Assembly: GCA_039589315.1 (NCBI GenBank) | Contig: JBDHHQ010000006.1 | Coordinates: forward strand, 64,001-128,000 | Reading direction: 5' to 3' | DNA from: Gemmatimonadota bacterium | GTDB lineage: Bacteria > Gemmatimonadota > Gemmatimonadetes > Longimicrobiales > Gaopeijiaceae | DNA: 64,000 nucleotides | In this document: in pieces, positions 4,468-58,816 of the stretch | Numbering within the stretch: the first letter of the stretch is position 1 | Layout of the letters: each line of letters starts with the position of its first letter | Program-made: the position numbers and the translations under genes | The notes under the pieces: generated by a model | Told to the model about the DNA's origin: nothing | The model's input: the letters and a program-made list of their open reading frames with translations, nothing else | Databases searched by the model: none

Positions 4468-4476
4468 CGCAGTCGC

Positions 4477-5334: not shown

Positions 5335-5532
5335 CGGGGCTCGGGTTGTGGGAGGTCATTGGTCGTCCGGTCAAGGCCGCCTTGACCTGGCTGGTCCGGG
5401 GCGTGCCTCCGCCGCGTGCGCGTTAGGGTAGCACCAGGCTGGACCCGCGCCAATCCGTGGGGGTTTCATGGCTGCGGTGGGCCCCATGGGCCTGGCCGTC
5501 GTCAATAACGCGTCCAGCCTGGAACGATACGC

Positions 5533-8697: not shown

Positions 8698-8785
8698 CGA
8701 TGGCGCCGGGCTGCAGGGTCCTGGGTCTCGATCCGGCCGCGCCCGCCCGTGCCGGCAGGCGGGGCTCCCGCGAAGGAGTCGGAAG

Positions 8786-39922: not shown

Positions 39923-41194
39923 CTAGGCCCTCCCTTTGAGCATGAGGTTCCAGTACAGCCATGGCAGCCCGTACCGCTTGAGCAGATACATGCTGTACCG
40001 CTCCTTGCCCGTGTTGATCAAGGGGATGGAGGGCGTGGGGGTGTTGTTGTAGTCGAACTCGGCCAGCAGCATGCGGTTGTGAGCCGTGATCAAGGGACAG
40101 GACCCATAGCCGTCGTAGGCCGGCTGGGGCTCCCGCCCAGCAATGACGGCGAGAAGGCCGTCCACGACCACCGGCGCCTGCTTCCTGACCGCGGCGCCCG
40201 TCTTGGCGTTGGGCGTGTTGCCGGCGTCACCCAGCGCGAAGACCTCGGGGTAGCGCGTGTGCTGCAGCGTGTGCTTGTCGACGTCGACGAAGCCATACGG
40301 CCCCTCCTCGGCGAGGGCGCTATTCTTGATGAAGTCCGGGGCGCTCTGCGGGGGCGTGACGTGCATGACGTCGTACGGCATCGTTTCGTACGAGACTTCC
40401 TCGCTGTCCTCCTGCGTGACCCTGAACACCGCCTCTCGCTTGTCCGGGCGGATCTCGCAGAGGTCGTGCCGGTGTTGCGCCTCGATCCCGTACCGCTCGA
40501 CGACGCCCAGCAAGAAGGTCTTGAACGGCTCGACGCCGAAGATCACCTTGCCGGCGTTGCCGAAGACGATGTGGGCCTGGTCGAGCATGCCCCTCCGTTT
40601 GAAGAGGTCAGCCGCGAGGTACATGATCTTCTGGGGCGCGCCCCCACATTTGAGGGGGGTGCCGGGACTCGTGAATATGGCGTTGCCACCCTTGAACTCG
40701 TCCAGCATGCGGAACGTCTTCGGCGCCAGCTTCGGGTCGTAGTTGCTCGAGACGAAGTCGGTCCGAAGCGCCTCTCGCAGGCCGGGAATCTCGTCCCAGT
40801 CGAGTTGGATCCCGGGAGCCACGACCAGGAAGTCGTAGCCGATCCGCTGCCCCTCTTCGGTGGTCACGGTCTTGGCCTCAGGATCGATCTCGGCGGCTCT
40901 GGCCTTGATCCAGTGGGCGTCCTTCGGCATTACCCTGGCCTCCAGGCGCACCGTCTCCCGGATGTCGACGATCCCGCCTCCCACCAGTGTCCAGAGGGGC
41001 TGGTACCAGTGCTGCTCGGACGGCTCGAGAATGGCGATGTCGGTCACACCGGCGCGCCCCAGTCGAGCGGCCACGGTGATCCCGGCGGTGCCTCCGCCGA
41101 TGATGACAACGCGATGATGAGCTCCCGACCCGGGCCTGGATGCCGGGCGTTGTGCCGCGGGGGCAGTCGTGGGCGACATCATGTCAGCCTCCAT
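39923..41194 (-). CDS. sqr: Sulfide:quinone oxidoreductase, type II-like
   Basis: GGGTAG, HWYQPLWTLVGGG, KCGGAPQK and YGSCPL active-site Cys, KTGAAVRKQ, LAEFDY. Confidence 0.9.
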   Translation of the reverse strand: MEADMMSPTTAPAAQRPASRPGSGAHHRVVIIGGGTAGITVAARLGRAGVTDIAILEPSEQHWYQPLWTLVGGGIVDIRETVRLEARVMPKDAHWIKARAAEIDPEAKTVTTEEGQRIGYDFLVVAPGIQLDWDEIPGLREALRTDFVSSNYDPKLAPKTFRMLDEFKGGNAIFTSPGTPLKCGGAPQKIMYLAADLFKRRGMLDQAHIVFGNAGKVIFGVEPFKTFLLGVVERYGIEAQHRHDLCEIRPDKREAVFRVTQEDSEEVSYETMPYDVMHVTPPQSAPDFIKNSALAEEGPYGFVDVDKHTLQHTRYPEVFALGDAGNTPNAKTGAAVRKQAPVVVDGLLAVIAGREPQPAYDGYGSCPLITAHNRMLLAEFDYNNTPTPSIPLINTGKERYSMYLLKRYGLPWLYWNLMLKGRA

Positions 41195-41209
41195 GCGGAC
41201 GGTCAGAGA

Positions 41210-41258
41210 TAATCAACTTTGTAGTAATGTAGTTATGTAGTGCGGCCTCACAAGAAGG
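41210..41258 (-). promoter_or_regulatory. Putative sqr promoter/operator block
   Basis: TTGTGA-16-TACATT on the minus strand; 35/49 identical to the 41310-41358 block. Confidence 0.6.
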
Positions 41259-41309
41259 GCTTATCCCCAGGTGCGCGTAGGGGACCTCACCACAACGTGT
41301 AGTCGGAAT

Positions 41310-41358
41310 CCTTCTTGACAGGGCCCACCGTATGACTACATTCGCATTCAGTTGATTA
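41310..41358 (+). promoter_or_regulatory. Putative sigma70 promoter/operator of the yeeE-yeeE-PDO operon
   Basis: TTGACA (41315-41320)-16-TACATT (41337-41342); GGAGG RBS downstream. Confidence 0.7.
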
Positions 41359-41377
41359 ATCAGCTGGAGGAGCCTCA

Positions 41378-41938
41378 ATGATCGACTTCATATCACAACC
41401 GTGGCCATGGTACGTCGCCGGGGTCCTGATCGGGCTGGTGGTGCCATTGCTGCTGTTGGCCGGCGGCGAGTTCGGGATCTCGTCGAACCTCCGGCACATC
41501 TGCGCGGCGGCGCTCCCCACGAAGGCGCCGTTCTTTCAGTACGACTGGAAATCCAAGGGCCTGTGGAACCTGACCTTCGCCCTCGGAATCATCATCGGTG
41601 GCTTCGTCGCGGGCACCTTCCTCGCCTCGCCGGATCCCGTGATCGGGATCAGCGAGGCTACGGTGGCTGACCTGCGGGCCATCGGCGTGGCACAGTCCGA
41701 GGGGCTGGCCCCCGCTGCGATCTTCAGCTGGCAGGGGCTCTTCACCCTCCCCGGCTTCATCATGATCGTGGTTGGCGGCTTTCTGGTGGGCTTCGGGACA
41801 CGCTATGCCGGGGGGTGCACCTCCGGACACGCGATCTCGGGTCTGGCCAACCTGCAGCTTCCGTCCCTCATCGCGGTGATCGGGTTCTTCGCCGGCGGCT
41901 TGCTGGCGACGCACTTGATCCTGCCCTTGCTCTTCTGA
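41378..41938 (+). CDS. YeeE/YedE family sulfur transporter subunit
   Basis: PWPWY, FGISS.LRHICA, GFGTRYAGGCTSGH. Confidence 0.9.
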   Translation: MIDFISQPWPWYVAGVLIGLVVPLLLLAGGEFGISSNLRHICAAALPTKAPFFQYDWKSKGLWNLTFALGIIIGGFVAGTFLASPDPVIGISEATVADLRAIGVAQSEGLAPAAIFSWQGLFTLPGFIMIVVGGFLVGFGTRYAGGCTSGHAISGLANLQLPSLIAVIGFFAGGLLATHLILPLLF

Positions 41939-41950
41939 AGGGGGACGAAC

Positions 41951-42439
41951 ATGAGCACGCAGACAACGACACGGACGAGCGGGCAAGCGCCCTCGTCGGA
42001 GCAGCGCTCGCTCAGCGGCGCGGGATTGCTGGTGTACCTGTTGATCGGAATCTACTTCGGTATCGTGCTGACGAAATCCGAAGTCGTCTCGTGGTACCGC
42101 ATCCAGGAGATGTTCCGGTTCCAGGACTTTCACATGTACGGGATCATCGGCGTGGCCGTGTTCGTGGCCATGATCTCGGTGGCGGTCATCAAGGCGCGAC
42201 ACGTGCGCACGGTGAAGGGCCAGGAGATCGTGCTCGTGCCGAAACAGCTCGACAAGGGTGCCTACCGCTACTGGATCGGTGGCACCATCTTCGGGTTGGG
42301 ATGGGCCCTGGCCGGGGCGTGCCCGGGGCCTATCTTCGCGCTGGTCGGTAACGGGCTGACGGTCATGGCGGTGACCATCGCCAGCGCCGTGGCGGGGACC
42401 TGGCTCTACGGTGTTCTGAAACCCAGGCTTCCGCACTGA
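41951..42439 (+). CDS. YeeE/YedE family sulfur transporter subunit
   Basis: SWYRIQEMFRF..FHMYG, FGLGWALAGACPGP. Confidence 0.9.
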   Translation: MSTQTTTRTSGQAPSSEQRSLSGAGLLVYLLIGIYFGIVLTKSEVVSWYRIQEMFRFQDFHMYGIIGVAVFVAMISVAVIKARHVRTVKGQEIVLVPKQLDKGAYRYWIGGTIFGLGWALAGACPGPIFALVGNGLTVMAVTIASAVAGTWLYGVLKPRLPH

Positions 42440-42513
42440 TCGCCAACTGCTGGAACGAACAAGAACAACCGACTTCGGCGGCTCGCAGGTCGCCCGACCC
42501 TGGAGGCGAGACA

Positions 42514-43959
42514 ATGCTCTTCCGACAGATCGAGGACAACAAGCTGGCTCAGTACGCCTACCTGATCGGATGCCAGAAGACCAACGAGGCCCTGATCATC
42601 GATCCCGAGCGGGACATCGATCGCTACGTGGACATGGCGACGGCCTCGGGCCTGAAGATCGTGGCCGTGGCAGAGACCCACATCCACGCGGACTTCCTGT
42701 CGGGTGCCCGAGAGCTCGCCGAGCAGCACGGCGCACGCCTCTATCTGTCGAAGGAGGGCGGCCCGGACTGGCAGTCGTTCTGGGCCCAGGACAGCGACTA
42801 CGACGTCCACTTCCTGGCCGACGGCGACACCTTCAAGGTCGGCAACATCGCGGTGAAGGCGTTACACACGCCGGGGCACACGCCCGAGCACGTGAGCTTC
42901 CTGATCACGGACCTGGGGGGTGGGGCCGACGCACCCATGGGGATGGCCACGGGCGACTTCGTTTTCGTGGGCGATCTGGGCCGTCCGGACCTGCTCGAGT
43001 CGGCCGCCGGCATCGCCGGCATGATGGAGCCGTCAGCACGAACGCTGTACGCTTCTGCCCAGGACTTTCTGGAGCTTCCGGACTACCTGCAGGTGTGGCC
43101 GGCGCACGGCGCGGGGAGCGCCTGCGGCAAGGCGCTCGGCGCCGTGCCCGAGACCACGGTCGGCTACGAGCGTCGGTTCAGCCCGGCGCTGGCCGCCGCA
43201 CAGCAGAGTGAGGACGAGTTCGTTCGGTTCATCCTGGAGGGGCAGCCCGAGCCGCCGGTCTACTTCGCGCGCATGAAGGCGCTGAACCGGGACGGCGTTC
43301 CTCTTCTGGGGGGCGTACCTGCCCCGGAGAAGCTGGCGGTCGAGCACCTGGGCGACCTGGCGGGTCGAGACGACGTCGTGGTGGTCGACACCCGGGCGGA
43401 GCGGGACGCATTCTACGCCGGTCATCTGCCGGGCTCCATCCACTCGCCGCTCAACAAGAGCTTCCACACCTTCGTGGGCTCGTACTTCGATTCGGAGATC
43501 CCCGTCTATCTGATCGCCGATGAGGATCAGCTCGACGATGTGGTGCGGAACCTGATTCGCATCGGTATCGACGACATCAAGGGCTATTTCACGCCCGACG
43601 CTCTGGAGCGGTATGAAGCTGCCGGAGGTGAGCTCGGCCGCACGGAGGCCATCGATTTCGAGGAGATGGAGCGGCGGCGCTCGCTCGGCGGCGTCCACGT
43701 CCTGGATGTTCGCAGGGGCAGCGAGTACGCCCAGGAGGGTCATGTGCCGGGGGCGCTGAACATCGCCCACACCCGGCTGCTACCCCGCCTCGACGAGGTC
43801 CCCGGAGACGGCACGCTGCTGGTCCACTGCCAGTCCGGCAATCGAGCCTCGGCGGCCGCCTCGTTCCTTGCGCGGAACGGCTTCGACGTCGTGGCCGTCG
43901 ACGACGATTTCACCAACTGGGCCGGCGCGGGCTCTCAGCAGGAGGAGGCCGGCGTCTAG
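42514..43959 (+). CDS. Persulfide dioxygenase-rhodanese fusion (CstB-like MBL-fold protein)
   Basis: THIHADF.SG, HTPGHTPEH, GDLGRPDL, PAHGAGSACGK; two rhodanese domains, the last with HCQSGNR. Confidence 0.85.
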   Translation: MLFRQIEDNKLAQYAYLIGCQKTNEALIIDPERDIDRYVDMATASGLKIVAVAETHIHADFLSGARELAEQHGARLYLSKEGGPDWQSFWAQDSDYDVHFLADGDTFKVGNIAVKALHTPGHTPEHVSFLITDLGGGADAPMGMATGDFVFVGDLGRPDLLESAAGIAGMMEPSARTLYASAQDFLELPDYLQVWPAHGAGSACGKALGAVPETTVGYERRFSPALAAAQQSEDEFVRFILEGQPEPPVYFARMKALNRDGVPLLGGVPAPEKLAVEHLGDLAGRDDVVVVDTRAERDAFYAGHLPGSIHSPLNKSFHTFVGSYFDSEIPVYLIADEDQLDDVVRNLIRIGIDDIKGYFTPDALERYEAAGGELGRTEAIDFEEMERRRSLGGVHVLDVRRGSEYAQEGHVPGALNIAHTRLLPRLDEVPGDGTLLVHCQSGNRASAAASFLARNGFDVVAVDDDFTNWAGAGSQQEEAGV

Positions 43960-45816: not shown

Positions 45817-46965
45817 CTAGACGGTCCCCGTCCTGGCCACGGAAACGTCTGCGGCCGCTGCCGCCCGGTGAGCCGCAGGAATCTGCACGGTGAGCGTCGT
45901 ACCGAGCCCCGGCCGGCTGCGCACCTGGACGCGGCCCCCCAGGTACCCGGCTCGCTCGCGCATGCCCACGAGACCGAAGCTGTGGCCGGTGGACGCCGAC
46001 ACGGTGGTGGGGTCGAAACCCTTGCCGTCGTCGCTGATCTCCGCCACCACGCTGTCGCCGGTCGCCCGGATCGACACATCGATGTGGGAGGCGTCGGCGT
46101 GGCGCACCGCGTTGTTGAGGGCCTCCTGGACAATGCGGTAGAGGGTGAGCTGGGCGTCGGTGGTGAGCCGCGAGTTCACCGCTTCGGTCCGGCAGTCGAT
46201 GGGGAGGCCGCTGACCTCCGAGAGCAGCCGGGCGTGGGCGCTTACCGCAGCCGCCAGGCCGAGCTCGTCCAGCTCCGGCGGGCGGAGACGTCGGGCGACC
46301 TTACGGACGCCCTCCATGGCAACGACGATCTCGCTCCGGACCGTCTCGAGGGCTCGGCTTCCGGCAGGCTGGGGCAAGCGGGCCGCCGCCCTGAGGTGCA
46401 GCAGGGTCGTGGCCAGGACCTGGGCGGTGTCGTCATAGAGCTCCCGCGACAGCCACATCCGCTCCCGCTCTTCCGCTTCCAGCACCATGATCGCCAGCTC
46501 CCGCTGCCGTCGGCGGCCTTTGGCCAGGCCGTCCAACATGCCGTTGAAGACGGTCGTGAGGCGCCGGAGGTTGTCGTCCGCAAGGGGGGAGAGGGCGCAG
46601 CGGGCGTCGAGCTCACCCTGCTCGACACTTCGCGCCGTGGCCTCGATGGGCGCCAGGGGCGACAGCGCGAGGCGGACCAGAACGGCATTGGCGGTCGCCG
46701 TGATGATCACGGCCAGCAGGACCGAGGCTCCGACCACGCCCAGCATGAGCACGGTGTCGACCCCTTCGGCGGTCCGTAGCGTGAGCCAGGCGGCCAGGAC
46801 GGCCACGAGGCCCACGAAGAGGGAGTTGGCAACGACGATCTTGTGGTATAGCGGGAACCGCAGGAACCGGCGCACCACGCCCAAGTCGGTCAACCGACCG
46901 ATACCCCGGCGTCCTGCGCCGTCCTGCCCGGAACCACCGGGTGCGCTGCCTTCGATTCGCCGCAC
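45817..46965 (-). CDS. HAMP plus HisKA_3/HATPase_c sensor kinase (NarX/UhpB class) with H-box His replaced by Tyr
   Basis: 2 TM helices, HAMP, SRELYDDTAQ, LRPPELDELGL, YRIVQEALNNAVRHA, DDGKGF, GLVGMRER. Confidence 0.85.
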   Translation of the reverse strand: MRRIEGSAPGGSGQDGAGRRGIGRLTDLGVVRRFLRFPLYHKIVVANSLFVGLVAVLAAWLTLRTAEGVDTVLMLGVVGASVLLAVIITATANAVLVRLALSPLAPIEATARSVEQGELDARCALSPLADDNLRRLTTVFNGMLDGLAKGRRRQRELAIMVLEAEERERMWLSRELYDDTAQVLATTLLHLRAAARLPQPAGSRALETVRSEIVVAMEGVRKVARRLRPPELDELGLAAAVSAHARLLSEVSGLPIDCRTEAVNSRLTTDAQLTLYRIVQEALNNAVRHADASHIDVSIRATGDSVVAEISDDGKGFDPTTVSASTGHSFGLVGMRERAGYLGGRVQVRSRPGLGTTLTVQIPAAHRAAAAADVSVARTGTV

Positions 46966-47204: not shown

Positions 47205-47717
47205 TCAGGGGCTCCTGAGCACCAGGGCGCCTGCCGCCTGGTCGTAGGTGACCAGCGCGACGTGTCGCGGAAGGAGCTCGACGGTCCTGACCAGCGACAG
47301 ACCGTCCCGCGCGGCGGGAGCATCCGGTCCGTCCGGACGGAAGCTCACCTCTATCCGGTGGGACCCGGCGGCCATCGGGATCTCGTGGAACACGTAGATG
47401 GGCCGATCCTGCCTGGCTCCGGCCGCGCTCACCAACGTATCGGTCGCCATCTCTCCGTCCAGGGCTATCTGGAGCCGGTAAGGCGTGCTCCGACCCTCGC
47501 AGATCGTATCCCTCTGCATGTGCACGGGGAGTCGGGCACGCTCCTCATCGGTGATGGGTCGGCACGCAGCATCGGGCTCGCTCCGGTATCGCCAGGCAAT
47601 CCGGACCAGAGCGTCGTCCGGGTCGCCCGGGGTATAGGGCACGCGGGAAAGGGCTGCGATGGCCACCGCCATGACCCCCGAGACGGCGAGGGCGATGAGC
47701 TTGCCGCCGGTGCTCAC
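47205..47717 (-). CDS. Membrane-anchored hypothetical protein with two Cys, coupled to the cytochrome b fusion
   Basis: N-terminal TM helix; CR....E...LP.HM....C; GTGA overlap with the upstream gene. Confidence 0.7.
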   Translation of the reverse strand: MSTGGKLIALAVSGVMAVAIAALSRVPYTPGDPDDALVRIAWRYRSEPDAACRPITDEERARLPVHMQRDTICEGRSTPYRLQIALDGEMATDTLVSAAGARQDRPIYVFHEIPMAAGSHRIEVSFRPDGPDAPAARDGLSLVRTVELLPRHVALVTYDQAAGALVLRSP

Positions 47718-49282
47718 GCCACGCTCCCCGGCGTCCCGGCCCGGTCACGAGTCGTCTCGCACTCCGTGTCGAGCTCGATGGCGTCCTCCGCCTCCTGCCG
47801 TGCCAGCTCGGCCAACTCCGCGCGGAACGCGGTGACCGCACGCGCGATCTGCATGGCCTCTCCCTCCCCGGCGTACGCCAGGCGCACCCGTTTCTTGTCT
47901 ACGCGGGGCTTCAACTCGGCCTCGCGGTCGTGATAGACCCGGGCCTCGAGCCACTTCACGCCCTCACGGTTCCAGCAGTCCCGGGGAGGGCAGGAAGCCA
48001 CGATCACGCCGTTGGCGCCCGACCGGACCAGGTACTCGATGACGGACGTGTGCGTGCTGCCCGCGCAATGGACGCCGAAGACGGGAGCGCCAGGCGCCAG
48101 CATGCCGCCGCTCCGGTCACACGCGATCACAACCACGTCGCCAGGAACGAGTCGGCCGCTGGCGATGAAGCGCCTCACCTCCGCCAGCTGATCTCGGCCG
48201 GTACGGCCCGGGGGGCCCACGCCCATGGGCGCACACGATCCGGCGCAGATGCCGCAGCTCACGCAGAGCGCCGGATCGACGCGCGCCACCAGGCCTATCC
48301 GGCCATCCGGGCGGGGAATCATCGAGATGGCGTCATAGGGGCAGTCTTCCGCGCACTGCAGGCAGCCCGTACAAAACCGTTCGTTGACGACCGACGCCAG
48401 CGGGAGCGCCTCTGCCCGGGGGCGCGTGAGCCACGGAACCAGCAACACCAGCGCTCCACCGGCTGCCGCTGCGACCCAGACCGTCCACGCGGGCATGCGC
48501 AACGTCAGCGGCAACCAGAAGCCGTAGAAGACGTCCAGGGGGATCCCTTCCGGAAGCCGAAACGGGCTCGCCTCCGCGGCCATGCCGACCGGCCAGAGGA
48601 CCGACAGAGCCGTGAGCACGCCCACCGACCCCCACAGGAGCCCGCGCGGGGGCATGAGCGAGGGTCGGGCGACCCTGGAGACGTGGATCCAGAGAATCAG
48701 CCCCACGCCGATGGGCAGGGCGATGTGCAGGAAGAGGTTCAGGAAGAAGAAAGCGCTGGGAAGGTCGCGCTCGCCCACGAAGGTCCGGGCGATCGGCTCG
48801 CTGAACAGCGGCAGCACGTCGAGGAACCGTGCACCCTCCACCGCCAACAGCTGGGCTTGGGTGTCCCACACCATTACGTAGCCGGTCCACCCGGTTACGA
48901 AGAAGACGAACAGGAGGACCAGACCAGACACCCACGCCAGGGTCCTGGGCCCCCAGCTCCGTCCCTGAAGAAGCATCCGGAGGGCATGGACGGCGGCTGC
49001 GAGCACGGCGACGTCCGAGGCATAGCGGTGCAGGGACCGTATCCAGCTACCCAACCAGGCCTGGTCCGTGATTCGCAGCACGGAGGCGTAGGGTGCGCCG
49101 ATACGGTAGAAGAGGAGCAGGTACAGACCGGTGAGCAGGAGGATGACGAACGACGCGACGGCAAGAGCTCCACTGTGGTACAGCGGATTGAAGCGCCACG
49201 TGTACAGGCGGTTGAACGCGGCGTCCAGACGCGCCAACAGGGCCCGGACGGGGCGTGTCACGGCCGGGGCATCGGCGGCCAT
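47714..49282 (-). CDS. Fusion: cytochrome b/b6 N-domain, 2x[4Fe-4S] ferredoxin and MvhD/FlpD-like [2Fe-2S] domain
   Basis: RSLHRY..AVHALR and FLHIALP..WIHVSR (four heme His), TGYVMVWD; CTGCLQCAEDCP and CVSCGICAGSC; IAC, HCAG, SCPPRDCWNREG. Confidence 0.85.
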   Translation of the reverse strand: MAADAPAVTRPVRALLARLDAAFNRLYTWRFNPLYHSGALAVASFVILLLTGLYLLLFYRIGAPYASVLRITDQAWLGSWIRSLHRYASDVAVLAAAVHALRMLLQGRSWGPRTLAWVSGLVLLFVFFVTGWTGYVMVWDTQAQLLAVEGARFLDVLPLFSEPIARTFVGERDLPSAFFFLNLFLHIALPIGVGLILWIHVSRVARPSLMPPRGLLWGSVGVLTALSVLWPVGMAAEASPFRLPEGIPLDVFYGFWLPLTLRMPAWTVWVAAAAGGALVLLVPWLTRPRAEALPLASVVNERFCTGCLQCAEDCPYDAISMIPRPDGRIGLVARVDPALCVSCGICAGSCAPMGVGPPGRTGRDQLAEVRRFIASGRLVPGDVVVIACDRSGGMLAPGAPVFGVHCAGSTHTSVIEYLVRSGANGVIVASCPPRDCWNREGVKWLEARVYHDREAELKPRVDKKRVRLAYAGEGEAMQIARAVTAFRAELAELARQEAEDAIELDTECETTRDRAGTPGSVA

Positions 49283-49386
49283 CGCGGTCCCGTTTGAGGA
49301 TCGGTCTCGAGATTCTTGCGCCCACACATTTATCATATCATCATGAAGAAAACAAGATAATCCAACGGCAGCAGGGCCATTCCTAC

Positions 49387-49824
49387 ATGATGCTCTCCCG
49401 CACAGGCGAGTACGCCCTCCGGGCAGTCCTACACCTGGCTCAACACGTCGACGAGGGCCCGACCCGTGTCGACGACATCGCCCAGACGCTCTCGGTTCCC
49501 CGTAACTATCTGTCGAAGATCCTCCACGAGCTCGGCCGAGCGGGTGTGCTCACCTCGTCCAGGGGCCCGCGGGGTGGCTTCGTCCTGGCCCGTCCGTCGG
49601 AGGAGTTGACGCTCGAGGACATCGTCGGGCACTTCGATCCTCTGGACGACCGGAGGCGGTGCGTGCTGGGTCGGGAGGGTGGGTGCAACGACGACGCACC
49701 CTGCGCCGCGCACGTTCGATGGTCGGAGCTATCGCAGAGTGTAGTGTCGTTCTTCCGCAAGACGACCGTCGCTCAACTCCTGGTCCATCCGGCCGGGGCC
49801 GAAGCCGTGATGTCGGAAGAGTAG
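49387..49824 (+). CDS. Rrf2 family Fe-S transcriptional regulator
   Basis: EYALRA, YLSKIL, S.RGP.GGF.L; C-terminal CVLG....C.....CAAH. Confidence 0.9.
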   Translation: MMLSRTGEYALRAVLHLAQHVDEGPTRVDDIAQTLSVPRNYLSKILHELGRAGVLTSSRGPRGGFVLARPSEELTLEDIVGHFDPLDDRRRCVLGREGGCNDDAPCAAHVRWSELSQSVVSFFRKTTVAQLLVHPAGAEAVMSEE

Positions 49825-50060: not shown

Positions 50061-50636
50061 ATGCACCATACCGGGATAGAGCCACCGAAGGGTGTGTGGT
50101 GGAAGCCCGCCCACAAGTCGGAGAAGATCTGGGTCACCATCGCCTTCATCTGGTGTCTGGTGCTGTTCGCCATGATGCCGTTTTGGCACCTCCGTGGCGG
50201 CCAGAACCCCACGGGCATTCGTCACAAGGTGGACCCGGACGCCTATGCGGAACGGGTCCGGGAGTTCATTGCCGACTACCAGATCGGCGAGGACAACGGC
50301 ATCCCCATCGTGGAGCCGCCGCCTGGCAGCGACGTGTATCTGCAGGGTCAGATGTGGCTGTGGACGCCCGTCCTGCAGCTCCAGAAGGACGCCGAGTACA
50401 TCCTCCATCTGTCGTCCATCGACGTGAATCACGGATTCAACCTCTATCCGTTCAACGTCAACTTCCAGGTGGTCCCGGGCTATGACTACGGCCTCCGGGT
50501 GACACCCACGGAAGCTGGCGATTATCGCATCGTCTGTAACGAGTTCTGCGGTGTGAACCACCACACCATGGTAGGTCGCGTCATTGTCGTGGACGGTGCC
50601 GAAAGCGCGGCGGCCCAGGTAGGAGGTGGCCGATGA
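50061..50636 (+). CDS. Heme-copper oxidase subunit II with CuA site (B-family-like, 1 TM)
   Basis: DVNHGF and CNEFCGVNHHTM CuA ligands. Confidence 0.9.
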   Translation: MHHTGIEPPKGVWWKPAHKSEKIWVTIAFIWCLVLFAMMPFWHLRGGQNPTGIRHKVDPDAYAERVREFIADYQIGEDNGIPIVEPPPGSDVYLQGQMWLWTPVLQLQKDAEYILHLSSIDVNHGFNLYPFNVNFQVVPGYDYGLRVTPTEAGDYRIVCNEFCGVNHHTMVGRVIVVDGAESAAAQVGGGR

Positions 50637-52399
50637 GCACCGTCGAGCGCGAGGCCTTGAGCGGCGGCACCCCATCCGGAGGTCCGTTCCGCACTTGTCC
50701 GACCACAGGGCTGAAGGTGCACCGCCAGGCGGACGCCCTCATCAAAGCCAACGCGGTCGTCGCCACGGTGGCGCTGCTGGTCGGCGGCATCGCGGCGGTG
50801 CTGGTGCTGCTCACCCGGTGGCAGCTGGTCCACCTTCTCGACGCGGTCTGGTTCTACCGCATGCTGACGGTCCACGGGATGAACATGCTGATCTTCTTCA
50901 TCCTGTTCTTCGAGATGGCGGTGCTCTACTTCGCGGGACCGGTGCTGTTGAACAGCCGGGTGCCGGCCCCGAAGACGGCCTGGGCATCCTTCGGCCTCAT
51001 GGTGCTGGGGACGCTCATGGTGGAGTGGGCCATGTGGACCGGGCGCGCCGACGTGCTGTTCACGTCGTACGTGCCACTGATGGCCCACCCGATCTACTAC
51101 CTGGGGATCATCCTGTTCGCGGTGGGCGCGCTCATCGTGACGGCCATCTTCTTCGGATCCCTGGTCGTGGCCAAGAAGGAGAAGACGTACGAGGGCTCCA
51201 TGCCGCTCGTGACGTTCGGCGCCCTGACCGCCGCCATCATCGCCGTCATCACCCTGCTTCACGGCGCCATCATCTACATCCCCACCTTCCTGTGGTCCCT
51301 CGGCATGGTAACCGTGGATCCACAGATCTACCGCCTGATCTGGTGGGGCCTGGGCCACTCCTCCCAACAGATCAACGTGGCGGCCATGGTCTCCATCTGG
51401 TACCTGCTGGGGGCCCTCACCGTAGGCGCGGTGGTGCTCAACGAGAAGATCAGCCGCGCGGCCTTCGTGCTGTACGTCGCCTTCATCTCCATGGCCTCGG
51501 CGCACCATCTTCTGGTGGATCCGGGCATGGGGGCCGCGTGGAAGGTCTGGAACACCAGCTACTTCATGTACATGGCGGTGCTGGCCAGCATGATCCACGG
51601 CTTCACGGTTCCGGCCGGCGTCGAGCTCGGGCAGCGGCTGCGGGGATTCACCCAGGGCGTCTTCGGCTGGCTGAAGAAGGCGCCGTGGGGGGATCCGGGA
51701 TTCAGCTCGTTGGCGTTCTCGCTCGTGATCTTCGGATTCGTGGGCGGCATCACCGGCGTCACGTTCGGTACCGAGCAGATCAACATCATCGCCCACAACA
51801 CGCTGAGGATCCCGGGGCACTTCCACGCCACTGTCGTGTCGGGAACCGCCATGGCCTTCATGGGCGTCACCTACTACGTGATCCCGCTGATCTTCCGGAA
51901 GCAGGTCTCCTTTTACGCGATGGCCAGGTGGCAGCCGTACATCTTCTCCCTGGGGATGCTCATCTTCTCGATGGCCATGACCTTCGCCGGCACGTTCGGG
52001 ATTCCGCGCCGTCACTGGGACATCACCTTCACGGGTGCGCCCTGGGGCGTGGAGTATTCGCCGGCAGTGGACCTGCTGATCGGCGTCATGGCCGTGGGCG
52101 GCCTGCTGGCCGTCGTCGGTGGCGCCATGTACATCGTCGTCACCGTCGTGAGCGTGTTCTTCGGCAAGCCGTTGGGTGAGGTCAGCGCGGCCAATTTGGC
52201 CGGCAAGGTGCCCCCGGGCGTGTACGCTCCGCCGCGGGCAGCCCTGGAGGCCGCAGGTGCCGAGCCCGAGCTCCCCGAGCACGGGAGGCTGGGGATGGTG
52301 CCCGGCACCATGATCCTCGTGGCGGTCTTCCTGGCCGCGTTCATCACGTACTACTTCGCCAACTGGAAGCTGCTCAGCTTCATCTGGAAGGTCGGCTAG
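50633..52399 (+). CDS. Heme-copper oxidase subunit I, eNOR-type nitric oxide reductase
   Basis: TVHG, WGLGHSSQQ (HPxxY Tyr replaced by Gln), SAHHL, GHFHAT, GIPRR. Confidence 0.8.
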   Translation: MSTVEREALSGGTPSGGPFRTCPTTGLKVHRQADALIKANAVVATVALLVGGIAAVLVLLTRWQLVHLLDAVWFYRMLTVHGMNMLIFFILFFEMAVLYFAGPVLLNSRVPAPKTAWASFGLMVLGTLMVEWAMWTGRADVLFTSYVPLMAHPIYYLGIILFAVGALIVTAIFFGSLVVAKKEKTYEGSMPLVTFGALTAAIIAVITLLHGAIIYIPTFLWSLGMVTVDPQIYRLIWWGLGHSSQQINVAAMVSIWYLLGALTVGAVVLNEKISRAAFVLYVAFISMASAHHLLVDPGMGAAWKVWNTSYFMYMAVLASMIHGFTVPAGVELGQRLRGFTQGVFGWLKKAPWGDPGFSSLAFSLVIFGFVGGITGVTFGTEQINIIAHNTLRIPGHFHATVVSGTAMAFMGVTYYVIPLIFRKQVSFYAMARWQPYIFSLGMLIFSMAMTFAGTFGIPRRHWDITFTGAPWGVEYSPAVDLLIGVMAVGGLLAVVGGAMYIVVTVVSVFFGKPLGEVSAANLAGKVPPGVYAPPRAALEAAGAEPELPEHGRLGMVPGTMILVAVFLAAFITYYFANWKLLSFIWKVG

Positions 52400-52406
52400 G
52401 GCTGCG

Positions 52407-53282
52407 ATGACGCGGGGTGAGAAGTGGGCCGTGGGGGCGCTGGGCGCCCTGGCGGCGATAACGGTGAGCTGGTGGGCGCTGGCCCTGTGGCCGGTGCCCA
52501 CCGGCGCGCCCGCCTGGCTGGAGCGCACGCGCCAGGTGTGCTTCGGCTCGACCGAGTCCGGTCTGCCGGACTCGGGAGGCTGGCTGCTGCTCGTGGGCCA
52601 GCCCACGAGCATGCTGGTGGCCATGTTCGTGATCTGGGGGGACGCCCTCACGGGCGGGGTCCGGGCGTTGGGGCGGTCTCTGCCGGGCCGCGTGGCCCTG
52701 GCCGCTACCCTTCTCCTGCTTCTGACGGGAACGGTGGGGGCTGGCGTCCGGGTGGCCAGCGCTCAGCCCGACGCGATCATCCTGGACGATCCGACCCTGC
52801 CGCCGGAGACGTATCCGCGCCTCGACCGGGAGGCACCCACCCTGGCGCTCGTGGACCAGCGGGGTGAGCTGATCACGTTGGGGCGATTTGCCGGCCGCAC
52901 GGTCCTGGTGACGTTCGCCTTCGGCCACTGCGAGACCATCTGCCCGGTGGTGGTCCACAACGCGTTGGAGGCGGCAGCAGCGGTGCCGGAGCTGGACCCG
53001 GCGGTCGTGGTCATCACCCTGGATCCGTGGCGGGACACGCCGGCTCGGCTCCCCCACATCGCCGGGCAGTGGGGCCTCGGCGACGACACCTTCCTCTTGA
53101 GCGGCTCCGTCGCCGCGGTCGAGGGTGTCCTCGACGATTGGAACGTCGCGCGGGAGCGGGACGAGCGCACGGGTGACGTGACGCACCCGGCCCTCGTCTA
53201 CATCCTCGACCGCACGGGGCGCATCGCCTACGCCACCACCGGCGACCCCCAGTCCATGGTGGCACTGGCGTTGAGGCATTAA
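52407..53282 (+). CDS. SCO/SenC copper chaperone with N-terminal TM extension
   Basis: FGHCETICP (CxxxC), ITLDPWRDTP, DVTH. Confidence 0.85.
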   Translation: MTRGEKWAVGALGALAAITVSWWALALWPVPTGAPAWLERTRQVCFGSTESGLPDSGGWLLLVGQPTSMLVAMFVIWGDALTGGVRALGRSLPGRVALAATLLLLLTGTVGAGVRVASAQPDAIILDDPTLPPETYPRLDREAPTLALVDQRGELITLGRFAGRTVLVTFAFGHCETICPVVVHNALEAAAAVPELDPAVVVITLDPWRDTPARLPHIAGQWGLGDDTFLLSGSVAAVEGVLDDWNVARERDERTGDVTHPALVYILDRTGRIAYATTGDPQSMVALALRH

Positions 53283-53357: not shown

Positions 53358-53975
53358 GTGCGGGGGAAGGCCGACGGCCTGTTCATCAACACCACCGGCC
53401 TCGGCGTCTTGGAGGACGGCTTCCGTCCGGACCCCTCGGGCGCGCGCCCGGGGGACGTGGTGCTGGTGAGCGGCCCCCTGGGGCGGCACGGCATTGCCAT
53501 CATGGCGGCGCGGGAGGGCCTGGCCTTCGACGTCGAGCTCGAGAGCGACACGGCGTCCCTCTTCCCGCTGGTCCACGCGCTTCGCCAAGCGGCGGGGGCC
53601 GGCGTGCGGACGATGAGGGATCCCACCCGGGGCGGGCTGGCCAGCGCGTTGAACGAGATCGCCGCGTCGTCGGGAGTGGGCGTGGAGCTGGTGGAGCACA
53701 CCGTGCCTCTGCCGGGTCCCGTCGCGGCCGCTTGCGAGATGTTGGGCCTGGACCCCCTTTATGTGGCCAATGAAGGCGTGCTCACCGCCATCGTGGCACC
53801 GGAGGCTGCGGGCGAGGCCCTGTCTGCATTGCGTGCACATCCGCTCGGCGCAGAGGCCGCGCTGATCGGGAGGGTCGTGGAAGCGCACCCTGGCATGGTC
53901 GTCCTCCGCACCGGCTTGGGGGGCACGCGAGTCGTGGACATGCTGCCCGGCGACCAGCTGCCCCGCATCTGCTGA
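53358..53975 (+). pseudogene. hypE: 5'-truncated hydrogenase maturation protein HypE
   Basis: GKADGLFINTTG, SDTA, MRDPTRGGLA..LNE, DPLYVANEG, C-terminal LPRIC; roughly the N-terminal third of HypE is missing. Confidence 0.75.
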
Positions 53976-55507: not shown

Positions 55508-56005
55508 ATGTCCCTCTACTACCTGAACGTCATCGTCCACCTGCTGGCCGCCTTGTTCTGGCTGGGTGGGATGTTCTTCCTCGCCCTCGTAGGGGCCCCG
55601 GTCCTGCGAAGGGTGGAGCCGCCGGAGCTGAGGGCTCGGCTGTTTCAGGCACTGGGGGAGTCGTTTCGGTTCTCTGGTTGGATCGCGATCGGGGTTCTGC
55701 TGATCACTGGAGCGGCGAACCTCCACTTCAAGGGCATCCTGTCCGTGGAAGTGCTGAGCAGCGCTGGGCTCTGGGACGGTGCCTACGGTCGAGCGCTACT
55801 CTGGAAGCTCCTCGCCGTCTCGGGAATGGTGGTGGTGAGCTTCATCCACGACTTTGTCCTGGGGCCCCGCTCGACCCGGGCGAAGCAGGACTCACCCCAG
55901 GCGCTGCGCCTCAGGAAGCGAGCGGCCTCGCTGGCCCGACTCAACGCGCTCCTGGGCATCGTGGCGGTCGTTGCCGCGGTCTACCTGGCCCGGGGGACAC
56001 CCTAG
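55508..56005 (+). CDS. CopD/DUF4149-like membrane protein
   Basis: HLLAALFWLGGMFF, LLITG, KL, HDF..GP; 4 TM helices. Confidence 0.75.
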   Translation: MSLYYLNVIVHLLAALFWLGGMFFLALVGAPVLRRVEPPELRARLFQALGESFRFSGWIAIGVLLITGAANLHFKGILSVEVLSSAGLWDGAYGRALLWKLLAVSGMVVVSFIHDFVLGPRSTRAKQDSPQALRLRKRAASLARLNALLGIVAVVAAVYLARGTP

Positions 56006-56017
56006 ACGACCGACGTC

Positions 56018-58816
56018 ATGGACTCAGACAGCGTCAGTGAGCGTGGGACCACAGGAACCCAGCCGGGTCAGGATCTCCGTGCTCCCTGGCACCGCCTGAC
56101 TGCTGATTCCGCCCTCGAAGAGCTGCACGTCGGCGAAGACGGGCTGACGCCTTCAGAAGCGCGGGATCGCCAATCGGTCCACGGCCTCAACGTGATCGGC
56201 GAAGAGGCGCGCATCCGGCCGCTCCGCATCCTCGCTCACCAGTTCACGGGCGCGCTGGTCCTGGTTCTGGCTGCTGCCGGCATGATCTCGCTGGCCATCG
56301 GTCATTGGGAAGACGCGGTGGTGATCAGCATCGTGCTCGTCCTGAACGCTACGATCGGCTTCGCACAGGAATACCGGGCCGAGCGGGCCATCGCGGCGCT
56401 GAAGGGTCTGGTCGCGCCTCGCTGTGTCGTGATGCGCGGCGGGCGGAGACGGGAGGTAGACAGTCGGGAGCTGGTCCCCGGCGACCTGGTGGCGCTGGAC
56501 TCGGGGACACGAATCCCGGCGGATCTACGCCTGATCCGGACGACGGCCCTGAGCGTGGACCAGTCGCTTCTGACCGGTGAGTCCGTACCGGTGGAGAAGT
56601 CGGCCACCTGGACGGCGACGGCCTCCGAAACGCCGGTTGCCGAGCGCCGAAACATGGCGTTCATGGGCACATCGGTGGCATCTGGCCGAGGCCGCGGCGT
56701 GGTGGTGAGCATCGGTGTCGAGACGGAGCTGGGCGCCATCGCCCAGGACATCCGCGCCGTAGAGCGGCCGGAGACACCGCTCCAACGCCGCATGGAGCGC
56801 TTCGGCCGAGGGGTGGCGGTGGCCATCGTGGTGCTGGCGGGTCTCACCTTCGCCCTCGGGCTCCTCCGCGGCGAGTCCATGTCCCAGATGTTCTTGACCG
56901 CCGTGGCCATCGCGGTATCGGCCGTGCCTGAGGGCCTTCCCGTGGTGATGACCATCACGCTGGCCGTGGCTTCGCGCCGGATGGCCCGCCGCAACGCCTT
57001 CGTCCGCCGACTGGCTGCGGTCGAGACGCTGGGAAGCTGCACGGTCATCGCCACCGACAAGACCGGGACGCTGACCGAGAACCGCATGACCGTCACGTCC
57101 GTCTGGGCGGGTGGTGAATCCTTCGCTGTGGGCGGCGGCGGCCTCGACACGGAGGGAGCGATCCTGTCCCGAGGCGAGCCCGCCACGGCGGAGCTGGAGT
57201 CACCCCTCTACTGGACCCTCCTGGCGGGTGCCCTGTGCAACGAAGCGGAGCTGTCTACCGACGAGGACGGCGCCGTCCGCCCCCAGGGTGACCCCACGGA
57301 AGTGGCGCTTCTGATCGTCGCGGCGAAGGCGGGCCTGGTGCGGAAGACCGAGGATGCGGCCTATCCGCAGATCGACGCGGTGCCATTCGAGTCGCAGCGG
57401 GGGTGGGCAGCTTCCGTGCACCGGACGGACGGTGATTCGGTCGTGCTGGTCAAGGGGGCGCCTGAGCGGGTGATGGCCATGTGCGACTCGGTCCTGGTCA
57501 CCGGCGGAGAAGCGGGTCTGGAGCCCGAGGCCATAGGCGTCGAGGCCGAGCGGATGGGGGCCGCCGGGCTCCGGGTCCTGGGCATGGCAGTGGGGCGCGG
57601 GGAGTCGGTGGCCGGCAGCGTCCTCGCCGGCTCGCCTCGAGGCCTGGTGTTCGCGGGGCTCACGGGCATGATGGACCCGCCGCGGCCGGAGGTGTCGGAG
57701 ACGGTGGCGGCGTGTCGGCGGGCCGGCATTCGGGTTCTCATGGTGACCGGCGACCACGAGAGCACGGCGAGGTCGATCGCCCGGCAGGTGGGGATCGTGC
57801 ATGAAGACGGCGCCACGGTCGTGGCCGGGGACCGCTTGGCGGCGCTCACGGAGGACGAGCTGATCGAGGCCCTGGAAGTGGGTCGCGTCTTCGCTCGGGT
57901 CGCGCCGGCGGACAAGCTCAGGATCGTGGAGTCCCTGTCTCGGGTGGGCCACGTCGTGGCGGTCACCGGCGACGGAGTCAACGACGCGCCTGCCCTGAAG
58001 GCCGCTCACGTGGGCGCCGCCATGGGCAAGAGCGGCACGGACGTGGCCAAGGAGGCCAGCGACATCGTGTTGGCCGACGACCGGTTCGCCACCGTGGCCG
58101 CGGCGGTGGAAGGCGGACGAACTGCATTCGCCAACCTCCGCAACGCGACCTTCTTCCTCGTCTCTTCAGGAGCCGGCGAGCTTCTCGCGATCCTGGGGTC
58201 TCTGCTCCTTCGCTTGCCTCTGCCTCTGCTGCCGGCGCAGCTACTGTGGCTGAACGTGGTGACCAACGGGGTCGAGGACGTCGCGTTGGCCGTGGAGCCA
58301 CCGGATCCTGCGCGCTTCCGGGATCCGCCCAGACGCATGACGGAGGGAATCCTCTCTCGCCGCCTACTCGAGCGCCTGGTGGTCACCGGGCTCGTGATGG
58401 CCGCAGGGACGCTCTGGGTGTTCGTCGGAGAGTGGGGAGGGGACCCGGAGCGGTTGGCGGCGGCCAGGGTCGCGGCGCTCACCACGCTCGTGCTGTACCA
58501 GGTGTTTCATGTGGGAAGCTGCAGGTCGGAGACCCGGTCCGCTTTCGCCATGAGCCCCTTCTCCAACCGGTTCCTCTTCTTCGGTGTGGGTGCATCCCTC
58601 CTGTTGCACGTCGGCGCGATGTACTTTCCACCGACCCAGGTGCTACTGCAGCTCGAGCCTCTGGGGGCGGAGACATGGCTGCGCATGGCGGCCGTGGCCA
58701 CCACGGTCGTGATCGCCGTGGAGCTTCACAAGCGTCTTCGTCCCCCGGCCAGCCGTCGTGGACGCGGAAACGCGGCGACGCGGACGGCCCGCGACCCCGA
58801 ACCGGTCATGCCATGA
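56018..58816 (+). CDS. Cation-translocating P-type ATPase (type II, Ca2+/CtpF-like)
   Basis: TGES, PEGL, DKTGTLT, KGAPE, DPPR, TGDGVNDAPALK. Confidence 0.95.
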   Translation: MDSDSVSERGTTGTQPGQDLRAPWHRLTADSALEELHVGEDGLTPSEARDRQSVHGLNVIGEEARIRPLRILAHQFTGALVLVLAAAGMISLAIGHWEDAVVISIVLVLNATIGFAQEYRAERAIAALKGLVAPRCVVMRGGRRREVDSRELVPGDLVALDSGTRIPADLRLIRTTALSVDQSLLTGESVPVEKSATWTATASETPVAERRNMAFMGTSVASGRGRGVVVSIGVETELGAIAQDIRAVERPETPLQRRMERFGRGVAVAIVVLAGLTFALGLLRGESMSQMFLTAVAIAVSAVPEGLPVVMTITLAVASRRMARRNAFVRRLAAVETLGSCTVIATDKTGTLTENRMTVTSVWAGGESFAVGGGGLDTEGAILSRGEPATAELESPLYWTLLAGALCNEAELSTDEDGAVRPQGDPTEVALLIVAAKAGLVRKTEDAAYPQIDAVPFESQRGWAASVHRTDGDSVVLVKGAPERVMAMCDSVLVTGGEAGLEPEAIGVEAERMGAAGLRVLGMAVGRGESVAGSVLAGSPRGLVFAGLTGMMDPPRPEVSETVAACRRAGIRVLMVTGDHESTARSIARQVGIVHEDGATVVAGDRLAALTEDELIEALEVGRVFARVAPADKLRIVESLSRVGHVVAVTGDGVNDAPALKAAHVGAAMGKSGTDVAKEASDIVLADDRFATVAAAVEGGRTAFANLRNATFFLVSSGAGELLAILGSLLLRLPLPLLPAQLLWLNVVTNGVEDVALAVEPPDPARFRDPPRRMTEGILSRRLLERLVVTGLVMAAGTLWVFVGEWGGDPERLAAARVAALTTLVLYQVFHVGSCRSETRSAFAMSPFSNRFLFFGVGASLLLHVGAMYFPPTQVLLQLEPLGAETWLRMAAVATTVVIAVELHKRLRPPASRRGRGNAATRTARDPEPVMP

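Follow-up and report, generated by a model that had tools for sequence, protein, structure and literature searches.

The 64,000-nucleotide stretch of Gemmatimonadota DNA considered here (the window; contig JBDHHQ010000006.1, positions 64,001 to 128,000) carries, between its positions 47205 and 49282, two overlapping genes that encode a cytochrome b–ferredoxin–MvhD fusion protein and a small membrane-anchored protein, called P2 below. In three bacterial phyla, the two proteins, or a single protein that unites them, form a module that is near-obligately coupled, in two gene orders, to an eNOR-type nitric oxide (NO) reductase. We tentatively propose that the two genes specify one membrane redox module dedicated to the neighbouring eNOR, which it would supply with electrons through a quinol-oxidation (Qo)-like site devoid of a Rieske protein. 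With five predicted redox centres, the module is the obvious candidate for the link that would carry electrons from the quinone pool or from cytoplasmic reductants to the nitrous oxide (N2O)-forming eNOR, and the near-obligate coupling makes it a probable, hitherto missing component of that N2O-producing system. If it is indeed the electron donor, models of the energy yield and N2O production of eNOR denitrifiers will need to include it; such denitrifiers occur in all three phyla examined (Gemmatimonadota, Myxococcota and Acidobacteriota), and published work adds Accumulibacter and Ferrigenium.

The Cytochrome b–FeS–MvhD Protein

The larger of the two genes lies on the minus strand at 47714..49282 and encodes a protein of 522 aa; the open reading frame (ORF) extends further, to 49336 (47714-49336, 540 aa), and the database protein, 100% identical and 522 aa long, starts at M19 (position 49282). 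Its current database names, “hydrogenase iron-sulfur subunit” or “ferredoxin”, are misnomers. Pfam domains, all above their cut-offs, divide the protein into Cytochrome_B (PF00033, residues 50-219, 2.4e-14), Fer4/Fer4_7 (316-368) and FlpD (PF02662, 418-511, 4.5e-11; 43.3 bits against a cut-off of 22.3), while NCBIfam gives sub-threshold matches only, the best being to the b-type cytochrome ExtP, cytochrome b6 and the HdrA2 C-terminus. The cytochrome b part (residues 1-290, helices A-F; 48413..49282, minus strand) is assigned by Foldseek matches to the cytochrome b of bc1 complexes and has b6 as its nearest solved sequence (E 2e-14). The ferredoxin-like domain, with two CxxCxxCxxxC motifs (residues 296-356; 48215..48397, minus strand), is assigned by Pfam, by its conserved cysteines and by its likeness to the C-terminal ferredoxin domain of HdrA (5odc_A 555-629, E 2.3e-10). 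The MvhD/FlpD-like domain with C388, C406, C431 and C436 (residues 380-495; 47798..48145, minus strand) is assigned by PF02662 and by its match to the MvhD chain 8rvv_F.

Conservation was read from an alignment of 142 relatives of the cytochrome, reaching down to ~28% identity and numbered after the 522-aa protein. The four heme ligands H85, H99, H186 and H200, arranged as one H-x13-H pair in each of helices B and D, are invariant. So are C304, C310, C314, C340, C343, C346 and C350 of the two CxxCxxCxxxC motifs, with C307 kept in at least 90% of the sequences, and C388, C406 and C431 of the MvhD-like domain, with C436 again at or above 90%; these are the predicted cysteine ligand sets of two [4Fe-4S] clusters and one MvhD-type cluster. 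An earlier note on this DNA had described a b6-like domain with four heme histidines, extra transmembrane helices, two CxxCxxCxxxC clusters and a four-cysteine MvhD/FlpD-like domain, and every one of these features is borne out by the domain matches, the alignment and the structural model.

The AlphaFold model of the fusion protein (predicted local distance difference test, pLDDT, 94.2; predicted template modelling score, pTM, 0.90) shows two additional helices, E and F, beyond the four-helix heme bundle, and Foldseek aligns the first ~280-290 residues to the cytochrome b of many bc1 complexes over helices A-F and the ef loop. The family that represents the C-terminal part of cytochrome b (PF00032) is not matched; in the model, helices A-F are followed by the Fe-S domain. 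By sequence comparison, the elements that build the outer pocket in Qo sites are present, namely helices E-F, the ef loop, a near-invariant aspartate and the W-D of the cd loop, which is shared with bc1/b6-type cytochromes b. The Qo-like motif of the ef loop reads P248-L-D250-V-F-Y-G-F-W-L-P, with D250 kept in 135 of the 142 sequences; the third position of the motif is L in 49, V in 31 and W in 29 of them, and the window protein reads LDVF, not PDWF. Helices E-F, the ef loop and D250 persist in family members down to ~30% identity, and because a plain electron wire would need helices A-D only, their retention suggests that quinol or quinone binds in the outer pocket. Helix D reads H200-V-S-R-V-A205 and thus has an alanine five residues after H200, at what we take, from a comparison with the bovine protein, to be the position of the Qi-site histidine. 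A heme ci of the kind found in b6f was considered and rejected, a histidine standing at the position of the b6 cysteine. By homology to the cytochrome b of bc1 and b6f complexes, the chain starts in the cytoplasm and is back there at the end of helix F, which puts the Fe-S and MvhD domains on the cytoplasmic side. The transmembrane wire suggested in the earlier note, from cytoplasmic Fe-S centres through hemes and quinone to a periplasmic partner, is supported by this topology. A search for fusion partners in proteins of 915-2610 aa, in itself weak evidence, gave none at E ≤ 1e-10.

The locus gene is the sole PF00033 cytochrome b in the genome (profile search of a 95%-complete assembly) and so is not a spare copy kept beside a bc1 complex; without a second bc1/b6-type cytochrome b in the genome, quinol:cytochrome c electron transfer must use another enzyme. 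The same fusion protein is also the sole FlpD match in the genome. A Pfam and NCBIfam scan found no Rieske, cytochrome c1, Hdr or hydrogenase gene among the ORFs examined between 39.9 and 58.8 kb of the window, in agreement with the earlier note, with the caveat of a HypE-like fragment at 53358-53975 described below. Seven places in the genome carry a Rieske domain (PF00355), every one of them on contigs other than that of the locus (C6).

P2 and Its Fusion to the Cytochrome

The smaller gene (47205..47717, minus strand) has a start that overlaps the stop codon of the cytochrome gene upstream (GTGA) and encodes P2 (P0002), a protein of 170 aa for which no Pfam or NCBIfam family is matched and which falls, in Protein Atlas, in “hypothetical protein” clusters only. 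Its model (pLDDT 94.6) consists of an N-terminal membrane helix (residues 3-24) followed by a ten-strand β-sandwich. A word-index search with P2 gave just six matches, and its relatives were drawn instead from loci related to that of the window, of which 80 came from the genome collection, mostly from Gemmatimonadota with some from Acidobacteriota and Myxococcota. The conserved residues are C52, E59, H66, M67, C73, D87, G100, D104 and G118, among which C52 and C73, invariant in 62 relatives of the split form, bracket a loop that carries E59, H66 and M67.

The relationship between the two proteins becomes clear from distant relatives of the cytochrome, many of which are 650-750 aa long and carry an extra C-terminus made of a membrane helix and a P2-like domain; P2 aligns, for instance, to residues 570-708 of the fused relative P0131 (E 5e-22). 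Among 150 representative clusters of the cytochrome family, phmmer detects a P2-like domain in 92 and a profile search in 109, including 106 of the 108 clusters that measure at least 600 aa. As most clusters have P2 joined C-terminally to the cytochrome in a single chain, the two genes of the window are the split form of one module. The earlier note had described P2 as a coupled two-cysteine membrane protein; the coupling (GTGA overlap) and the two cysteines (C52 and C73) stand, but in most lineages P2 is a domain of the same module and not a separate protein. Because the membrane helix follows the cytoplasmic MvhD domain in the fused relatives, the β-sandwich would lie outside the membrane. 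That P2 might be a cleaved, secreted protein was rejected, the same helix being internal in the fused forms.

The topology of P2, with an N-terminal anchor and an outer β domain, is thus that of a Rieske protein without the Rieske motifs, and neither the CxH nor the CxxH box of Rieske proteins occurs in its sequence. A Foldseek search of its fold against the PDB returned nothing at E ≤ 0.001; VIA-align in its wide mode gave a best Z of 8.0, to the lumenal β-sandwich of HGSNAT, with many generic Ig-like domains below it and no cupredoxin, Rieske or PCuAC chain among the 50 matches listed. Complex prediction with cytochrome b residues 1-305, P2 and the periplasmic domain (residues 45-191) of the neighbouring subunit II, the last as the scored partner, gave 0.00 twice in runs without controls, a result that speaks neither for nor against binding.

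A further arrangement is seen in a single representative protein (P0271), in which a SCO1/SenC domain (residues 47-180, with CxxxC) precedes cytochrome b and Fer4 and the C-terminus looks frameshifted. This protein is a one-member cluster from one ENA contig of 6095 bp; the fusion is either genuine or arose during assembly from SCO1 and module genes that lie side by side.

The Neighbouring eNOR-Type Reductase

Divergently from the cytochrome and P2 genes, both of which lie on the minus strand, the plus strand carries a regulatory gene and the genes of a heme-copper enzyme. Subunit II (50061..50636), recognised by domain profiles and motif, has the CuA signature H124 ... C159-N-E-F-C163-G-V-N-H167-H-T-M170, and the full set of CuA ligands (H...CxExCxxxHxxM) is invariant in 57 sequences. 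Subunit I (50633..52399), identified by Pfam and by alignment to solved B-type oxidases (the best being 7deg and 1ehk), is of the eNOR type: its GHSSQQIN aligns to GHPVVYFW, so that the cross-link tyrosine is replaced by glutamine, while the HH at 291-292 is kept. A SCO1/SenC copper chaperone gene (52407..53282) is the last conserved gene of the reductase operon and is found in 59 of the 60 related loci with enough flanking DNA. The enzyme thus fits eNOR, an assignment that relies on general sequence features, namely a B-family relative without the tyrosine, CuA, sco1, and ctaA/ctaB in relatives. As subunit II keeps a complete CuA site, the enzyme needs a periplasmic electron donor. Murali et al. 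(2024) describe eNOR as a true NO reductase, as widespread in nature as cNOR and qNOR, which uses a modified heme a and has CtaA in many of its operons; it was assayed with ascorbate/TMPD, and the account of the enzyme states no physiological donor.

A second eNOR-like subclade occurs in four Gemmatimonadota loci (L083-L086, genomes G270, G191, G261 and G290), with 45-48% identity to the window subunit I, the same GHxxQQIN stretch and no SCO1 gene; its CuA motif was confirmed in L083, where a divergent UbiA/CtaB gene is found upstream and an Rrf2 gene downstream. In operons in which the module and eNOR are co-directional, from Myxococcota and one Acidobacteriota genome, COX2 is immediately preceded by a second, highly divergent COX1-like ORF (24-26% identity to eNOR subunit I; L100 13010-14443; L114 11002-12264; L115 2053-3018; L116 10767-11972), which may be the “eNOR scaffold protein” of the Ferrigenium preprint discussed below. 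No such ORF is seen at the window locus, where PF00115 matches on C6 are confined to the eNOR gene.

Coupling of the Module to eNOR in Three Phyla

The distribution of the module was followed in 401 Gemmatimonadota, 251 Acidobacteriota and 251 Myxococcota genomes, calling the module at E ≤ 1e-20 and eNOR subunit I at E ≤ 1e-80 in the Gemmatimonadota. As related genomes are not independent, coupling is given as plain counts without statistics. In the Gemmatimonadota, the searches found the module in 96 genomes, eNOR in 99 and both in 93; a 94th genome has both, its eNOR gene being interrupted by a contig end. The tally is thus 94 genomes with both, two with the module only, six with eNOR only and 299 with neither. 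Wherever the two lie on the same contig they are divergent (89 of 89 pairs), with gaps of 849-1652 bp. Among the six eNOR-only genomes, the gene abuts a contig end in two, and the other four carry the second eNOR subclade. One of the two module-only genomes has a decayed locus (L087 in G127), which retains frameshifted SCO1 pieces, residues 340-511 only of the cytochrome, an intact P2-like ORF and a split Rrf2 gene but lacks COX1 and COX2, as though one deletion had taken eNOR and the heme domain together.

The same association holds elsewhere. All four Acidobacteriota genomes with eNOR (at least 59% identity) have the module on the same contig, 243 of the 251 have neither, and the four further matches, at 28-32% identity, are a distant paralogue without eNOR. 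All 26 Myxococcota genomes with eNOR likewise have the module on the same contig, in five divergent and 21 co-directional pairs judged from coordinates; 222 of the 251 have neither, and the three module-only matches comprise two near a contig start and one weak match confined to the heme domain. The co-directional order, seen in three Myxococcota loci and one Acidobacteriota locus, is COX2-COX1-SCO1-module (fused)-(CtaB)-(Rrf2). Among the 80 related loci, themselves closely akin to each other, COX2 and COX1 are present in all 65 with at least 3.5 kb of upstream DNA, P2 in all 75 with 600 bp or more of downstream DNA, and Rrf2 in 39 of 60. An adjacency kept through two gene orders is good evidence of shared function. 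The earlier note had pointed to phylogenetic profiling against eNOR, and the close family does co-occur with eNOR in nearly every carrier genome of the three phyla; the tie does not extend to the architecture at large, since the distant paralogues, with the same domain set, occur without eNOR.

One such paralogue, ~30% identical, lies outside an eNOR context in an Acidobacteriota genome (L097 in G543, 4314-11102), where genes for a FixO-like cytochrome c and a di-heme cytochrome c and an unassigned ORF of 219 aa are followed, in this order, by a complete cytochrome b with both its N and C domains, a cytochrome b-2x[4Fe-4S] protein and, as a gene of its own, FlpD/MvhD.

Putative Regulation of the Divergent Operons

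The first plus-strand gene beyond the module encodes an Rrf2-family regulator (49387..49824, PF02082 3.3e-31), whose start is taken at M45 of its ORF and which has three cysteines (C-x7-C-x5-C). The divergent start codons are separated by a gap of 100 bp; this AT-rich stretch contains, at 49330..49349, an imperfect AT-rich palindrome (reverse strand TCTTCATGATGATATGATAA, core CATG-N4-TATGAT), a candidate Rrf2 operator that overlaps a weak -10-like hexamer. Alignment of the same gap from 46 loci gives the consensus TTATCATGATAATATGATAA. The exact core occurs in 30 of 46 loci with an adjoining Rrf2 gene, as against two of 28 without one, and has a single further copy in the 1.18 Mb of locus sequence; the whole genome (6.67 Mb) holds three copies, of which the window copy alone has the AT-rich arms. 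We infer from this distribution that the Rrf2 protein may bind the palindrome and control both divergent operons. The regulator passes TIGR00738 and falls below the cut-offs of the NsrR (51.6 bits against 182) and IscR (84.6 against 207) models; that it senses NO is a guess from its family, the NsrR model not being reached.

Comparison with Known Redox Systems

The cytochrome has a place in the literature as a branch of a tree: by its sequence, it belongs to the family of the “PDWF-FeS” clade of Kao & Hunte (2014; PMC4122944), which these authors describe as a cytochrome b fused to 4Fe-4S and MvhD domains with no Rieske gene in the cluster. Their conclusion that members of the clade bind quinol or quinone is in general the same as ours, and the tryptophan of the Qo motif, which they find in 96% of cytochrome b sequences, is kept in 29 of the 142 sequences here. 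In their account the clade is not connected with eNOR, no P2 domain is noted and no function is assigned. Two “bc1 chain C-like” genes are reported in an eNOR operon, together with sco1 and a heme O synthase gene, in a preprint on Ferrigenium straubiae (bioRxiv 10.64898/2026.01.22.701106), according to which the cytochrome b/Fe-S protein is present in the proteome under denitrifying conditions and may form a supercomplex with eNOR. In the preprint the genes are described as “rather unusual” and put forward as Ferrigenium markers, whereas the coupling found here spans three phyla; the first protein of the Ferrigenium pair has FAD and NADH domains, which the window family lacks, and the likeness between the two families is drawn from the published description. 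No mention of such a partner of eNOR was met in the text of Murali et al. (2024) or of the corresponding preprint. Literature searches found no biochemical study of the family, as the earlier note had supposed, nor any description of P2 or its fusion, of the cross-phylum coupling or of the operator; the family itself is therefore already in print, uncharacterised, and what is new here is the P2 domain and its fusion, the coupling to eNOR across phyla and the operator.

With the cytochrome b of bc1, b6f and actinobacterial bcc complexes, the module shares the fold (~285 columns), the four heme histidines, the W-D of the cd loop, the topology and, less clearly, a Qo-like ef motif. It differs from these Rieske/cytochrome b complexes in having no Rieske or cytochrome c1/f partner nearby, in bearing cytoplasmic Fe-S and MvhD domains in place of helices G and H, and in presenting, where a Rieske head would be expected, a periplasmic β-sandwich of no known family. 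Unlike b6, it lacks the cysteine of heme ci and, unlike bc1, it has an alanine at the presumed position of the Qi-site histidine. The tandem of a 2x[4Fe-4S] ferredoxin and a FlpD domain matches the C-terminus of HdrA2 (positions 560-776 of 777), and a ferredoxin-MvhD tandem is an established electron wire in the Mvh-Hdr complexes of methanogens. In comparison with these MvhD/HdrA systems, no hydrogenase, formate dehydrogenase or Hdr is encoded among the window ORFs scanned, and the wire ends at a membrane heme and not at a flavin.

Two further systems resemble the module in layout. CcoG (FixG) is reported to carry two [4Fe-4S] clusters on its cytoplasmic side and, at its C-terminus, an Ig-like domain in the periplasm, with a physiological donor that is unknown (PMC7558416); like the module, it is a membrane protein with a periplasmic β domain encoded beside a heme-copper enzyme, but it lacks the hemes, the cytochrome b core and the MvhD domain. 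No sequence relation between the two was detected, neither module protein matching Fer4_5/Fer4_18 or FixG_C, the Pfam families of CcoG/FixG, a result that concerns family membership and leaves a likeness of role untouched. The NarI-NarH pair of respiratory nitrate reductase likewise combines an outer quinol site, two b hemes and cytoplasmic Fe-S clusters; unlike the module, it is built on an unrelated heme-protein fold, has a cytoplasmic molybdoenzyme as acceptor and carries no periplasmic domain.

Proposed Mechanism and Alternative Explanations

In the arrangement that we favour, a chain made of [2Fe-2S], [4Fe-4S], [4Fe-4S], heme bH and heme bL would join the cytoplasm to the quinol/quinone pocket at the outer face of the membrane. 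P2 would be anchored like a Rieske protein, its Cys-bracketed His-Met loop capping the outer pocket, and the whole would constitute a Rieske-less analogue of complex III. Electrons from quinol and/or from a cytoplasmic reductant, the latter by way of the Fe-S chain, would reach the periplasmic CuA of eNOR during NO reduction, and an NO- or redox-sensing Rrf2 repressor would control the module and eNOR together. eNOR needs electrons at its periplasmic CuA, and the coupling is most simply explained by an input module dedicated to it. Several observations weigh against this account. The four genomes with the second eNOR subclade have the module nowhere, which indicates that eNOR-type enzymes can work without it; conversely, one 97%-complete genome keeps an intact module-P2-CtaA operon with no heme-copper match at E ≤ 1e-8. 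The related loci show no conserved gene for a cytoplasmic partner beside the module. P2 has no recognisable redox fold, its best PDB match being a generic β-sandwich, and in the fused forms C52 is kept in 75 of 93 and C73 in 77 of 93, so that the pair is missing from about a fifth and would fit a structural disulfide better than a metal ligand; with neither a redox fold nor a universal cysteine pair, the exit of electrons from heme bL to CuA is left unexplained. Lastly, the module stands in the co-directional operons amid biogenesis genes, with SCO1 before and CtaB after it, and CtaA follows P2 on the same strand in ten of the 80 related loci, contexts of which the former would fit an assembly factor equally well.

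These contexts lead to the main alternative, a strong rival that we hold to be somewhat less probable, in which the module is a reductase for the assembly or maintenance of eNOR, comparable to CcoG, and not its catalytic electron donor. Candidate targets would be the reduction of Cu(II) to Cu(I) for SCO1/CuA, the cysteines of SCO1/CuA, the active-site iron, or the synthesis of heme O/heme A, which requires electrons. Besides the COX2-COX1-SCO1-module-(CtaB) order, the CtaA neighbours and the module-P2-CtaA operon that persists without eNOR, this explanation draws on the conserved His-Met and cysteine pair of P2, typical of periplasmic copper handling, from which a link to copper may be inferred, and on the SCO1 fusion in P0271, which is, on the other hand, a one-member cluster on a 6-kb contig and may be a frameshift artefact. 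There is precedent in CcoG itself, a cupric reductase encoded beside the cbb3 oxidase (PMC7558416), and the modified heme a of eNOR and the CtaA of many eNOR operons (Murali et al. 2024) point in the same direction. Five redox centres and a retained Qo-like pocket are nevertheless heavy equipment for a chaperone, and the A-type oxidases at three other PF00115 loci of the genome also depend on CuA and heme a but lack a partner of this kind. The module has no sequence relation to CcoG, P2 belongs to no Pfam family, and FixG_C was not found in the genome; CtaA is absent from the window locus, and the sole CtaA-like match in the genome is weak (31% identity) and on another contig. Were the module an assembly reductase after all, it would represent a second, heme-containing kind of CcoG-like factor. 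A special case of electron supply, which we consider improbable, is a Rieske-less bifurcating quinol oxidase docked to eNOR, in which the high-potential electron would pass from the Qo site to CuA, directly or via the His-Met loop of P2, and the second through bL and bH to the MvhD/ferredoxin chain and on to ferredoxin or, with a partner, to NAD(P)+. It would explain why the Qo-like pocket is kept while the presumed Qi-site histidine is replaced by alanine, and why the MvhD/ferredoxin chain is of a low-potential type that resembles the HdrA2 C-terminus; the Ferrigenium preprint proposes quinol:NAD+ oxidoreduction for a sister protein, encoded in the same operon, that carries FAD and NADH domains, and the generation of NAD(P)H has been suggested for Rieske/cytochrome b complexes of anammox bacteria. 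The window family, however, has no flavin or NAD(P) domain and its loci no conserved cytoplasmic partner, electrons moving from bL to bH would run against the membrane potential, and a need for low-potential reductant in Gemmatimonadota is not obvious. If bifurcation did take place, NO respiration would power reverse electron flow without spending proton-motive force, a new form of energy coupling in denitrification. Still less probable is a loop of the NarI/NarH kind, with quinol oxidised at the outer face and both electrons passed to a cytoplasmic acceptor, for example for the repair of NO damage, so that eNOR would not be the acceptor at all. The layout is the same as in respiratory nitrate reductase, the module appears to share Rrf2 control with eNOR, and it persists without eNOR in one genome; but such a loop leaves the fused and conserved periplasmic P2 unexplained, the absence of the module tracks that of eNOR (neither in 299 of 401, 243 of 251 and 222 of 251 genomes), and both have decayed together in L087.

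Other Features of the Locus and Genome

The window has a GC content of ~68%, and the assembly measures 6.67 Mb. The closest relatives of the proteins encoded here bear Gemmatimonadota names. Among public sequencing runs, no RNA run is listed, and the eight DNA runs contain 6-9% of the sampled sequence words. Three more loci for heme-copper subunit I (PF00115) are found in the genome, on C21, C27 and C43, the C43 copy being in two pieces. A search for NirK as a local source of NO gave no match above the cut-off in the genome; NirS, Nar/Nap and NosZ were not searched for.

Downstream of SCO1, and beginning 76 bp after it, a plus-strand ORF of 205 aa (53358-53975) resembles HypE. It matches only positions 130-332 of TIGR02124, corresponding to the AIRS_C domain, with 244.5 bits against a cut-off of 251.6; the N-terminal domain is missing, and the ORF is either a truncated hydrogenase-maturation gene or a stand-alone AIRS_C protein. 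It has no counterpart by tblastn in any of the 80 related loci, even in the 87%-identical L002.

On the other side of the module, 240 bp downstream of P2, lies a HAMP/HisKA_3/HATPase sensor kinase (NarX/UhpB-like; 45817-46965, minus strand); no response-regulator domain was detected in the adjoining ORFs, and the kinase, present in just three of the 80 related loci, falls outside the conserved module. Further away, Pfam matches outline a sulfur-handling cluster (39923-43959) composed of an FAD-dependent pyridine nucleotide-disulfide oxidoreductase (39923-41194, minus strand), two YeeE/Sulf_transp-type membrane proteins (41378-41938 and 41951-42439, plus strand) and a metallo-β-lactamase/rhodanese fusion similar to persulfide dioxygenase-rhodanese proteins (42514-43959, plus strand). 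Beyond the reductase operon, a CopD-family membrane protein (55508-56005, plus strand) is followed directly by a P-type ATPase (56018-58816, plus strand), which has Cation_ATPase_N and Cation_ATPase_C domains and is therefore of type II and not a copper P1B pump; CopD homologues occur in 11 of the 80 related loci, at varying positions.

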